Positions 23,794 through 48,712 of a DNA stretch of 64,000 nucleotides are shown in pieces. The position numbers were made by a program, and so were the translations under genes. The stretch is taken from contig JANPLN010000030.1 in the NCBI GenBank assembly GCA_031426555.1, positions 1 through 64,000 on the forward strand. Direction: 5' to 3'. The notes beneath the pieces are model-generated. The model was not told where the DNA came from. It saw only the letters and a list, made by a program, of their open reading frames with translations, and did not search any database. How positions within the stretch are numbered: position 1 is the stretch's first letter; each line of letters begins with the position of its first letter. This stretch comes from Bdellovibrionales bacterium (lineage in GTDB: Bacteria > Bdellovibrionota > Bdellovibrionia > Bdellovibrionales > JAGQZY01).

Positions 23794-23833
23794 CCTCTCT
23801 TTTTAAGACGCGTCCATCCCTGGACTCGCTTGC
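23794..23833 (+). repeat. Half-copy of the palindromic element at 48569-48705
   Basis: CCTCTCTTTTTAAGACGCGTCCATCCCTGGACTCGCTTGC aligns with CCTCCCTTTTAAGACGCGCCCATCCATGGACTCAGTTGC (48601-48639). Confidence 0.75.
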
Positions 23834-26218: not shown

Positions 26219-26353
26219 CAAGTTTCAATGGTTTCTTAAAAAAGGATGGATTAAAAAGGTTTTTAAAAACGAGTTCCGCAGCGAAGCGAGGACTGTCCGA
26301 GATTTTTAAAGACCTTTTTAATCCATCCTTTTTTAAGAAACCATTGAAACTTG
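26219..26353. repeat. Giant palindromic element A
   Basis: 51-bp arms (26219-26269 / 26303-26353) with 1 mismatch; 33-bp core containing GCGAAGC; 3 bp from the ychF stop. Confidence 0.9.
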
Positions 26354-33038: not shown

Positions 33039-33464
33039 TTAGAAAGGAATTTCTTCGTGGGAATCAAAGCTCGGTTCAGGAGAGAAGTCCGCTGCTGGAG
33101 CCGACGAACCCATGCCCGCGCCCATGCCTCTTTCATTCGGGGCACCAAGAAACTGAACAGTGGTCGCTACAACCTCTGTTGTGTAGCGTTTTTGTCCCTG
33201 TTGATCTTCCCAGTTGCGAGTTTGCAATTTGCCTTCAACGTACACTTGGCGACCTTTGCTTAAGTGCTGGCGACAAACTTCGGCCAATTTTGCCCAAACA
33301 ACAATGCGGTGCCATTCTGTGCGTTCTTGTTTTTGTCCATCGCGATCCACCCAGTTTTCACTGGTGGCGATGTTAAAATTGGCCACACTTTGTCCTGAAG
33401 ACAGTGTTTTAAGTTCAGGATCTGCGCCCAAGCGACCGACGAGAATGACTTTGTTTACTGACAT
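33039..33464 (-). CDS. ssb: Single-stranded DNA-binding protein
   Basis: [18 protein letters not shown]-terminal EEIPF. Confidence 0.98.
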
Positions 33465-33566
33465 AATTCCCCCATTTGTTGGTGATCAATCGTTATACTG
33501 AGGATGCTGCGCGGAATGCAAACGGAGTTTGCAAAAGGTGCAGATGGTCGACTGGCACATGACGAC

Positions 33567-33749
33567 ATGCCCAACTTTACAGCACTTTAAGTTTCTGAAT
33601 TCTTCCAAAAACTCAAATTGTAAGGAAAAAGACCTCTCGCCAACAGGATGTTGGATCTGCGAGTTGAGCCCACGACGGGCGCGTCTTTTTTCTTACAATT
33701 TGAGTTTTTGTAAGAATTCAGAAACTTAAAGTGCTGTAAAATTAGGCAT
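33567..33749. repeat. Giant palindromic element B, overlapping the gspN 3' end
   Basis: 67-bp arms (33567-33633 / 33683-33749) with 4 mismatches; 49-bp structured core; the right arm includes 24 nt of the gspN CDS. Confidence 0.92.
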
Positions 33750-34715
33750 TGGGTCGCTAAATCCGTTCGCCTGGACGCGAAATGCGTAGCGCAGGCCTTC
33801 GCTGGTGGTTGTACTGTATTTGCCGAGATATCCTTGAATGGCATCAGCGGCACTGCCGAGCTTGGCTTGCATGGATTTTTTTAAATTTAAATCCACAGCC
33901 AAGCTGTAGAAGCCAACGGTGGGAGTTCCTCCGGGGAATACACGGATGTCCATTTCACCGGAAATTTTTAAAATCATCTCGTCAGAGCCACTGCCGAGCT
34001 GAGTCTCTTTGAGCAAAAGCTTTCCATTCTTTAACGTGCCTTTGAGAACGACTTTTTGAAAACTCATGGCGGGAAGAGCCATGGGGCCAAAACCCGTTGC
34101 GATTTCGAACTGCGGAATGATCAATTTTGCCAGGCTCATTTCAATCACGCCCTCGGGCTGGGTTTTCATCGATGGATCCAAATCCATCTTCGCGGTCAGT
34201 TGCCCGAGCGCAGACGGGGATACCGGCCAGTTGGGGCCCAAACTTTTTGCGAGAATTTTAACATCAAAATCAGAGTAGTTCAGATCGAGCTCGATCGCCT
34301 GCGGATCTTTGATTTTTGAACTCGCACTGGTTGAGGCCTCGAGCGTTCCGCCAAAAAGACCTTCAGCATCGATGTTGACGTGGGGCTTTAGAACTTTGGT
34401 AAAAGCAAATTGAATACAAGCGAGCACTGATGGTGCCACCTTCAAGTACTTCACTTCGACCTGCTCGATCATAGGACTTTCCACCAGCGCTTGCTTCATG
34501 ATGACGGCTGGACGGGGAAAAAACGACAGGTCCATGCTCTCAAATTCTAGATAAATAAGGCCACTGGCGTTGGTTTCGGCGACGATCTTTTCGCCAAGCT
34601 CAGTCAGTGGAAAAAACACCACGGAAAAAACCAAACAGCACAACAAAAACATGACGATCTTCATTTTGTGAAACAAAAAAATCGTCTTTATAAAATCAAT
34701 CACTGTTCGTAGCAT
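33726..34715 (-). CDS. gspN: Type II secretion protein N
   Basis: N-terminal TM ending FFP, AsmA-like beta-rich body, last gene of the gsp operon. Confidence 0.75.
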   Translation of the reverse strand: MLRTVIDFIKTIFLFHKMKIVMFLLCCLVFSVVFFPLTELGEKIVAETNASGLIYLEFESMDLSFFPRPAVIMKQALVESPMIEQVEVKYLKVAPSVLACIQFAFTKVLKPHVNIDAEGLFGGTLEASTSASSKIKDPQAIELDLNYSDFDVKILAKSLGPNWPVSPSALGQLTAKMDLDPSMKTQPEGVIEMSLAKLIIPQFEIATGFGPMALPAMSFQKVVLKGTLKNGKLLLKETQLGSGSDEMILKISGEMDIRVFPGGTPTVGFYSLAVDLNLKKSMQAKLGSAADAIQGYLGKYSTTTSEGLRYAFRVQANGFSDPMPNFTAL

Positions 34716-46396: not shown

Positions 46397-46555
46397 GGGT
46401 GTATCCTCAATTTGGCAAGTCCATAGAACGAATGATTTCGAGCTGACTCTTCGTTACTTCTCCTCACGTTAGCGTTTCACTACCGTTTCGTCGTCGCGCC
46501 TCGATTCAGCTCGAAATCATTCGTTCTATGGACTTGCCAAATTAAGGATACACCC
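46397..46555. repeat. Giant palindromic element C, in the gspD leader
   Basis: 50-bp arms (46397-46446 / 46506-46555) with 1 mismatch; 59-bp core. Confidence 0.92.
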
Positions 46556-46620: not shown

Positions 46621-46693
46621 GGTCGAGTCCAATAAGACTCGACCCCAAAAAGACGCGAGTCCAATAGGACTCGACCCCAAAAAGACGCGAGTC
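46621..46693. repeat. 32-bp tandem repeat (about 2.2 copies), each unit a hairpin
   Basis: CGAGTCCAATA[A/G]GACTCGACCCCAAAAAGACG at 46624-46655 and 46656-46687, plus CGAGTC. Confidence 0.88.
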
Positions 46694-46794
46694 AAAAAAA
46701 CTAACACAGCAATTCAGTGCGAATTTTCTCGCACAAGGTCGAGATGACAAAAGGGGAGGTCCTCTTTTGCTAAACATTTGTTACTCTGTTCCTT

Positions 46795-48562: not shown

Positions 48563-48712
48563 ACTGCGATTTTTAACTTTTAGATACAATTTTTTTAGAA
48601 CCTCCCTTTTAAGACGCGCCCATCCATGGACTCAGTTGCCCCCGTCCGGGTCGCAAAGGTCTTAAAAGGGAGGTTCTAAAAAAATTGTATCTAAAAGTTA
48701 AAAATGACTGCG
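48562..48712. mobile_element. Giant palindromic element D, MITE-like, with a 7-bp flanking direct repeat
   Basis: Perfect 47-bp arms (48569-48615 / 48659-48705), 43-bp core, GACTGCG directly on both sides (48562-48568, 48706-48712). Confidence 0.8.

Follow-up and report, generated by a model that had tools for sequence, protein, structure and literature searches.

The far arm of a long inverted repeat lying between gspN and ssb carries an inverted copy of the last 24 nucleotides (nt) of gspN, and comparison with relatives indicates that this sequence passed from the gene to the repeat. Template switching by DNA polymerase at the hairpin is, in our assessment, the likeliest writer of the mirror, and its overlap with gspN would then be a tolerated by-product. 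The locus is described here within a 64,000-nt stretch of DNA from a Bdellovibrionales bacterium (i.e., the window, to which all positions refer unless a contig is named); the genome from which the window derives is denoted G000, and its relatives are denoted G001 and higher.

Two 67-nt arms (33567-33633 and 33683-33749), complementary at 63 of 67 positions, enclose a 49-nt spacer, and the parts of the locus are as follows.

33039-33464, minus strand: ssb, the downstream gene, encoding SSB (PF00436, E 2e-41).
33537-33558, no strand assigned: small decayed palindrome at the insertion site, where G003 and G002 have related hairpins.
33559-33566, plus strand: putative decayed continuation of the copy, about 5 to 8 more nt past a 3-nt gap, which would pair with the gene in the minimum-energy fold.
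33567-33590, plus strand: outermost 24 nt of the far arm, which repeat the end of gspN in inverted orientation.
33591-33633, plus strand: inner part of the far arm, AT-rich and copy-specific, missing from the empty site of G001.
33631-33685, plus strand: conserved two-hairpin core of family A, TwoAYGGAY-like and antisense to gspN.
33683-33725, plus strand: inner part of the gene-proximal arm.
33726-33749, minus strand: final eight codons of gspN, stop included (MPNFTAL*), host DNA from which the far arm was copied.
33726-34715, minus strand: gspN, which closes a type II secretion gene cluster; GspF and GspG are encoded upstream.

The open reading frame (ORF) at 33726-34715 was assigned to GspN by TIGR04411 (55.4 bits versus a cut-off of 50). 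An earlier note, made from the letters of this DNA, had claimed that the far arm mirrors the last eight gspN codons and that two of the four arm mismatches (33572/33744 and 33575/33741) are third-position differences in the Pro and Asn codons that give U.G pairs on the gspN strand; both claims hold, 22 of the 24 nt being identical. Its statement that the remaining two mismatches are not wobble pairs on that strand is equally correct, 33605/33711 being a transversion and 33625/33691 a G.T on the strand opposite to the gspN mRNA. In a genome search allowing up to 10 mismatches, 36 nt of the inner far arm matched their own partner arm only. The core is composed of hairpin 1 (33636-33663, loop AGGAT) and hairpin 2 (33668-33680, loop ACGAC), and its nearest sister core, at G000:C15:240031, differs by 3 sites and 1 gap. 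The gene-proximal arm holds a perfect 9-bp inverted repeat of its own (33690-33716), and its inner end is A-rich, versus T-rich in most copies; the two features possibly reflect a second local switch. The foot of the stem lies upstream of ssb, ~100 nt from its start, and leaves the ssb ribosome-binding site uncovered, and the ~65 nt preceding that start are near-identical among G000, G001, and G003. The palindrome at 33537-33558 is probably the remnant of a GTAC/GTGC-type foot and may be tied to that foot family. A promoter and terminator scan gave no signal above chance.

To establish the direction of copying, we relied on GspN of relatives, which was found in 59 of the 60 genomes searched and whose gene ends were read in the best 29. 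The tail MPNFTAL* ends GspN in G001, G002, and G003, all of the same genus; related tails are present in five more distant relatives (G004, G005, G009, G010, and G013), and a similar tail persists even at 38% protein identity. Over its last 24 nt, gspN of G001 is identical to that of G000, and in G001 the gspN stop codon runs straight into the sequence lying beyond the element in G000, i.e., an empty site, which could be a deletion rather than a site that was never filled. G003 has a different 49-nt hairpin at this site, and three public runs (X2, X6, and X7; two studies) contain a relative in which 49 other letters replace the element, as in G003. In G002, an element with a core of another family lies further along from the gspN stop. 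None of these three same-genus relatives has a mirror of the gspN tail, and a search of the whole genome with the 24-mer (up to 5 mismatches) matched only the far arm and gspN. Given that the tail is conserved in relatives and that the 24-mer is unique to the locus, the gspN tail belongs to the host, predates the element, and was copied into the far arm. A standard terminal repeat was ruled out, as the 24-mer has no further match in the genome.

The earlier note had left two alternatives side by side, namely that the arm was extended by copying of flanking host DNA or that the element donated the GspN C-terminus, as Rickettsia palindromic elements do, and had proposed aligning the GspN C-termini of relatives and looking for the same 24 nt in other element copies. 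The alignment revealed a similar tail in relatives without the element, supporting host-templated extension, and the 24 nt recurred in no other G000 copy at up to 5 mismatches. Donation by the element, which is refuted by the presence of the same tail at the empty site of G001, deserves next to no credence: sequence identity by itself would fit it, as would a related minor effect at C57:58420 (a last codon and stop), against which stand the same or a similar tail in eight relatives and the confinement of the 24-mer to this one copy. A metagenome scan for further gspN loci returned 149 pattern matches, of which 0 were confirmed.

Hardly more probable is an origin of the far arm as an artefact of assembly or of library fold-back. 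The genome is a draft, cores of this kind break assemblies, some copies at contig ends in G003 look chimeric, and no independent holder of the allele at the gspN locus was found. Against an artefact, the arms differ from each other at 4 positions, and the same architecture is common to orthologous sites in independent genomes and to other families of the order. Moreover, a second assembly agrees, in that one public-run contig covers 33000-34400 with 0 differences, the run being possibly the source sample itself; the runs compared (8 of 20 listed) were all taken as assembled contigs, of which 1 spans the locus, 3 contain the relative mentioned above, and the rest are fragments. The 20 runs listed include no RNA run, which has no bearing on expression.

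The element belongs to a family of ~50 repeats with GC-rich conserved cores and AT-rich arms that differ from copy to copy. A genome-wide scan for inverted repeats detected 66 whose arms measure 20 nt or more; the 48 copies that we analyzed have arms of at least 34 nt and spacers of 30 to 95 nt, and 46 of them sort into five related or co-occurring core types; BLAST located 57 core loci in the genome. By mechanical ORF calls, 37 of the 48 copies overlap a stop codon or start no more than 25 nt from one, and in 28 of the 29 cases that are clear the core is directed toward the upstream gene (type A, 15/15, and type C, 7/7, without re-orienting; type B was oriented by its similarity to type C). 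Exact core patterns were present in 16 (type A) and 62 (type B) of 301 genomes sampled from the order, and outside the genus 20 of the 46 loci examined have copy-specific arms scoring at least 20. A strict family-A pattern retrieved 40 loci from a species-level genome collection, i.e., 22 in three records titled Bdellovibrionales and 18 singletons; by record title, the type A pattern belongs to Bdellovibrionales. Genomes G075, G285, and G267, of another family, contain 24 and 7 type A and 29 type B pattern matches, which represent independent expansions. Within the window, other long-armed elements lie at 26219-26353 (type B), 48569-48705 (type A), and 46397-46555, the last being outside the named core types, missing from G003, and, it appears, abundant in G005; at 23798-23830 lies a type A copy that is half deleted here and intact in G001. 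The window also contains three tandem 120-nt repeats (2600-2959) and a repeat with a 16-nt period (46624-46703).

The cores resemble TwoAYGGAY RNA (RF01731), a published motif with AYGGAY in each of its two loops and an outer stem of low conservation; binding of CsrA has been proposed for it, its copy number varies, and most of its doublets are divergent (PMC2864571; PMC4333381; bioRxiv 10.64898/2026.09.22.753630). Searched with the Rfam model on the antisense strand, sister copies scored 40.2, 34.7, and 31.5 bits (gathering cut-off, 43 bits); no match in G000 reached 43 bits, and the gspN copy gave no match at E values up to 10. Other Rfam matches were sub-threshold only, mostly to microRNA models that fit any long hairpin. 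Across 34 cores, 94.5% of the cells of the two-hairpin fold are paired, relative to 27 to 44% in slid controls, and 7 of 17 pairs have changed on both sides; these counts are inflated by related sequences, and the structure was itself drawn from the sequences counted. One-sided pair changes in the cores give G.U on the strand antisense to gspN, and this strand is probably the one that folds functionally. None of the 17 parsed A/E cores has AYGGAY twice, 5 have it once, and GGAY is present twice in 5; core doublets are divergent in 7 of 7 cases. A CsrA gene was found in four of the five genomes searched; binding of CsrA by this family is doubtful, since the loops often have CGA in place of GGA. 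The element works like TwoAYGGAY but falls short of it in two respects, i.e., its score lies below the cut-off and AYGGAY is not present in both loops.

Uptake of host sequence is also evident at other loci. Five of the 48 long-armed copies in G000 overlap, by 8 to 24 nt, a gene tail conserved in relatives that have no element there (gspN, 24 nt; greB, 20 nt; a 1031-codon ORF, 20 nt; C42, 14 nt; and C54, 8 nt), a count from which two overlaps on C72 (28 and 16 nt) were left out as involving short unverified ORFs. One copy in G001 overlaps its upstream ORF by 9 nt. Most copies are without a clear host-derived extension, and extension length ranges from 0 to ~30 nt. At C57:58420-58603, the mirrored tail of the 1031-codon ORF provides the last Lys and the stop codon of the convergent gene, which ends otherwise in relatives. 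The cleanest case is G000:C1:9899-10007, where a lineage-specific insertion lies between divergent genes, with the same clean empty junction in G001 and G003; its arm contains 19 nt that repeat the non-coding flank in inverted orientation (19/19), with the allele proper to G000, and nothing of the host DNA was lost. The empty site at this locus contains a 7-bp inverted repeat. An effect of this insertion on the C-terminus of a gene was considered and dropped, the frame being open for 32 codons only. At five loci the copy was taken from the side of the upstream gene, and at C1:9899 from the opposite side of the core, and thus the direction of copying is not fixed; C16, C45, C62, C9, C2:63474, and window position 46397 are uninformative as to direction, their flanks being diverged or deleted in relatives.

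The two arms of a copy change in concert. In 26 comparisons of orthologous arms (12 with G001 and 14 with G003), 176 columns had changed in both arms versus 54 in one, and 159 versus 53 remained after one pair with differing cores was dropped; because arms are defined by complementarity, single-arm changes are undercounted in these figures, and G000 is a party to both sets of comparisons. The mirroring between the arms extends to multi-base changes and indels, and orthologous cores are 96% and 93% identical, relative to 87% for flanks. Mismatches within ~15 nt of the core persist between genomes, indicative of incomplete homogenization. Arm change relative to G001 (69/576 columns) is near the divergence of gspN at four-fold sites (28/147), as would be expected of neutral change combined with homogenization. 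At C42:7298-7510, G000 and G001 have the ~90-nt type D core in opposite orientations within the same arms. At greB (G000:C31:54966-55156), where the arm mirrors the last 20 nt of the gene, the far arms of both G000 and G001 read GTT at a codon that is ATT in the G001 gene and GTT (Val) in the G000 gene; Ile is found at this site in four relatives (G001 and three more). This pattern suggests one arm-to-gene conversion from Ile to Val, a single event that parallel mutation could also have produced.

Concerted arm change, together with the inverted core, fits template switching, which we consider the probable origin of the gspN mirror. More specifically, DNA polymerase would switch template at the hairpin, and the nascent strand would fold back on the stem or cross the fork, copy past the arm into the flank, and return out of register, such that a copy is added and no host DNA is lost. 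Later switches would keep the arms matched in either direction and would occasionally overwrite the last codons of a gene. We infer this process from comparisons of draft genomes; recombination between the arms would likewise homogenize arms and invert cores. The proximity to stop codons and the uniform orientation of the cores go beyond generic slippage, and they therefore call for targeting or selection in addition.

These same position and orientation biases speak for a clearly less probable alternative, in which the mirror was written during insertion itself. In that case, a mobilizing enzyme would nick single-stranded DNA close to a GTAC-type foot that follows the stop codon, and the 3' end thus freed would fold back and copy the target flank, leaving an inverted target duplication; the enzyme would most plausibly be one of two RAYT-like HUH (Y1) nucleases. 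G000 has 12 matches to the Y1 transposase domain, two of which are RAYT-like genes with GGTAC hairpin feet (G000:C37:14835 and C44:16126), and these feet resemble those of some copies. RGTAC is present at the outer end of 12 of the 48 elements versus a background of 0.07, the gspN copy being without it. Furthermore, the lineage-specific C1:9899 insertion already has its perfect 19-nt mirror, and REP arrays adjoin TwoAYGGAY copies in Pseudomonas (bioRxiv 10.64898/2026.09.22.753630). Copying coupled to insertion is harder to reconcile with the many copies that have no clear extension, with extensions of such variable length, and with a copied side that differs between the five loci and C1:9899. 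Nor does an intact core lie beside either RAYT-like gene or any other transposase gene in G000, the lone core-beside-transposase case being at a contig end in G003 and looking chimeric. By-eye comparison indicates that the motifs of the two RAYT-like proteins resemble subclass 2.1 of PMC6006769, for which the account given there names no identified REP. The enzymatic link to the RAYT-like genes may thus serve as a lead. Generalized, this alternative would have TwoAYGGAY-like repeats spread by inverted target duplication, with an HUH nick behind the stop codon and a fold-back stem made from host DNA that then serves as a local template for gene conversion and rewrites last codons (GreB, Ile to Val) or gives a neighbor its stop, a proposal that we advance tentatively.

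Short palindromes related to GGTAC hairpins occur dozens of times in the genome. In addition, a family of short (~165 aa) Y1-domain genes is present in nine copies, two of them broken, with a common upstream leader that carries a GGGGCAAAGC motif.

G000, C25:58512, C25:12468, C20:29762, C66:53991, C72:27437, C72:20035, C7:11794, C9:53333, and C69:33817: short Y1 genes.

With template switching as the preferred reading, we turn to the mismatches between the arms. Among same-genus relatives, the Pro codon is CCT in four of five and CCC in none, and the Asn codon is AAC in G003 only; as no same-genus relative has CCC, at least one of the two changes arose in the non-coding far arm. Of the 24 transitions possible in the mirrored tail, 8 would be synonymous, and 4 of these 8 would also give wobble pairs on the mRNA; the probability that two changes are both synonymous is 0.10, and that both are synonymous and U.G 0.02, the two values being post hoc. 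Thirty G000 copies have a single clear upstream gene, and on the mRNA of that gene their arm transitions yield 9 G.U and 17 A.C pairs. Once the cores are placed in a common orientation, G.T falls on the strand antisense to the upstream gene in 34 cases versus 9; this bias amounts to 22:6 for types A, C, and E alone, to 22:4 in the inner part of the arms, and to 12:5 in the outer part, where it is not significant (p 0.14). The mirrored part of greB differs at first codon positions, and these differences are non-synonymous. A rule of G.U pairing on the mRNA strand was rejected on these counts, and the weight that the earlier note implicitly gave to differences that are "only synonymous" and G.U-compatible is not borne out, the wobble of the family favoring the opposite strand. 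The differences in the Pro and Asn codons are probably mutations that arose recently and have not been corrected.

A further alternative is that the extension was retained through selection on RNA, whereby a duplex over the gspN stop would tune processing of the gsp-ssb transcript or mask antisense read-through of the TwoAYGGAY-type strand; we regard this as unlikely. The predicted fold is very stable on both strands (-108.6 and -103.0 kcal/mol; for the minus-strand fold of 33460-33780, z = -13.3, with 0 of 100 shuffles equally stable), the core structure covaries, CsrA is encoded, and both coding mismatches wobble on the mRNA at the post hoc chance given above. However, the element is missing at the gspN site in G001 and G003 and belongs to another core family in G002, the wobble bias of the family runs opposite to the mRNA strand, the other two stem mismatches are not mRNA wobble, and GGA is found in both loops in only 5 of 17 A/E cores. 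RNA and DNA folding energies did not separate a role as RNA from one as single-stranded DNA. The effect on gspN is probably small, since the protein is unchanged and close relatives are without the element.

TwoAYGGAY-type repeats are widespread, and their spread and role are treated as unresolved in bioRxiv 10.64898/2026.09.22.753630. Our comparisons of filled and empty sites indicate that part of the long stem comes from host DNA, is matched in concert, and can overlap coding sequence. Host-derived stems would account for the "unconserved outer stem," and covariation in the outer stem need not reflect selection on RNA. The family also provides many natural loci at which template switching and arm-to-gene conversion could be measured in bacteria.

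Among known systems, TwoAYGGAY is like this family in having a pair of hairpins that rise from one basal stem and a long outer stem of low conservation, in occurring as many intergenic copies whose presence varies between relatives, and in the divergence of its doublets (7 of 7 cases here and 68.4% in Pseudomonas TwoAYGGAY; bioRxiv 10.64898/2026.09.22.753630); sister copies also match its model on the expected strand. The two differ in that scores here stay below the cut-off, in that the gspN copy has AGGAT and ACGAC in place of AYGGAY loops, and in that the arms here, unlike those of TwoAYGGAY as published, are 40 to 75 nt long, near perfect, and partly copied from the host. The terms "template switch," "stop codon," "RAYT," and "Bdellovibrio" do not occur in the main text of bioRxiv 10.64898/2026.09.22.753630.

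REP, REPIN, and BIME elements resemble the family as extragenic hairpins of 100 to 200 nt near gene 3' ends, with RAYT-like genes in the genome and, in some copies, GTAC-type feet at the ends. In contrast to REPINs, in which the ends are conserved and the spacer is variable (PMC3116915; bioRxiv 10.1101/2021.07.10.451892), here the center is conserved and the arms vary; the gspN copy is without an intact terminal REP pair and without a GTAG tag, its ends being host sequence. CGTC closes the core on the plus strand, in a hairpin unlike the CGTC REP families described in PMC3733652. REP dimers nested in long palindromes have been described in two species (PMC3733652). MITEs (Correia, ERIC, and RUP; PMC3733652) are likewise small, non-coding, gene-adjacent repeats with strong hairpins, but they differ from the family here, which has no terminal inverted repeat common to its copies; comparison of gspN, greB, and C1:9899 with their empty sites revealed no direct target duplication and instead an inverted copy. 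Rickettsia palindromic elements share with the gspN copy a palindromic repeat that overlaps coding sequence, but they insert in frame and add residues (PMC3733652), whereas GspN is unchanged and sequence flowed from gene to repeat.

Our literature search, which lay outside most subscription journals, found no bacterial repeat family with arms that copy neighboring gene ends; the nearest precedents are the nested REP dimers of PMC3733652 and coding palindromes in mitochondria (PMC6649704). For template switching, homogenization of arms, inversion of the spacer, and expansion of arms have been described as signs (PMC8604942; PMC13100816; PMC5941160). Switching at quasi-palindromes (PMC5941160; PMC8604942; PMC13100816; PMC8794818) has in common with the family homogenized arms, mirrored multi-base changes, and spacer inversion, as well as arms that expand into flanks and an amino acid change in a gene. 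The published cases mostly involve 5- to 16-bp repeats or the stems of RNA genes, whereas here it is a dispersed family with arms of 40 to 75 nt that take up gene ends.
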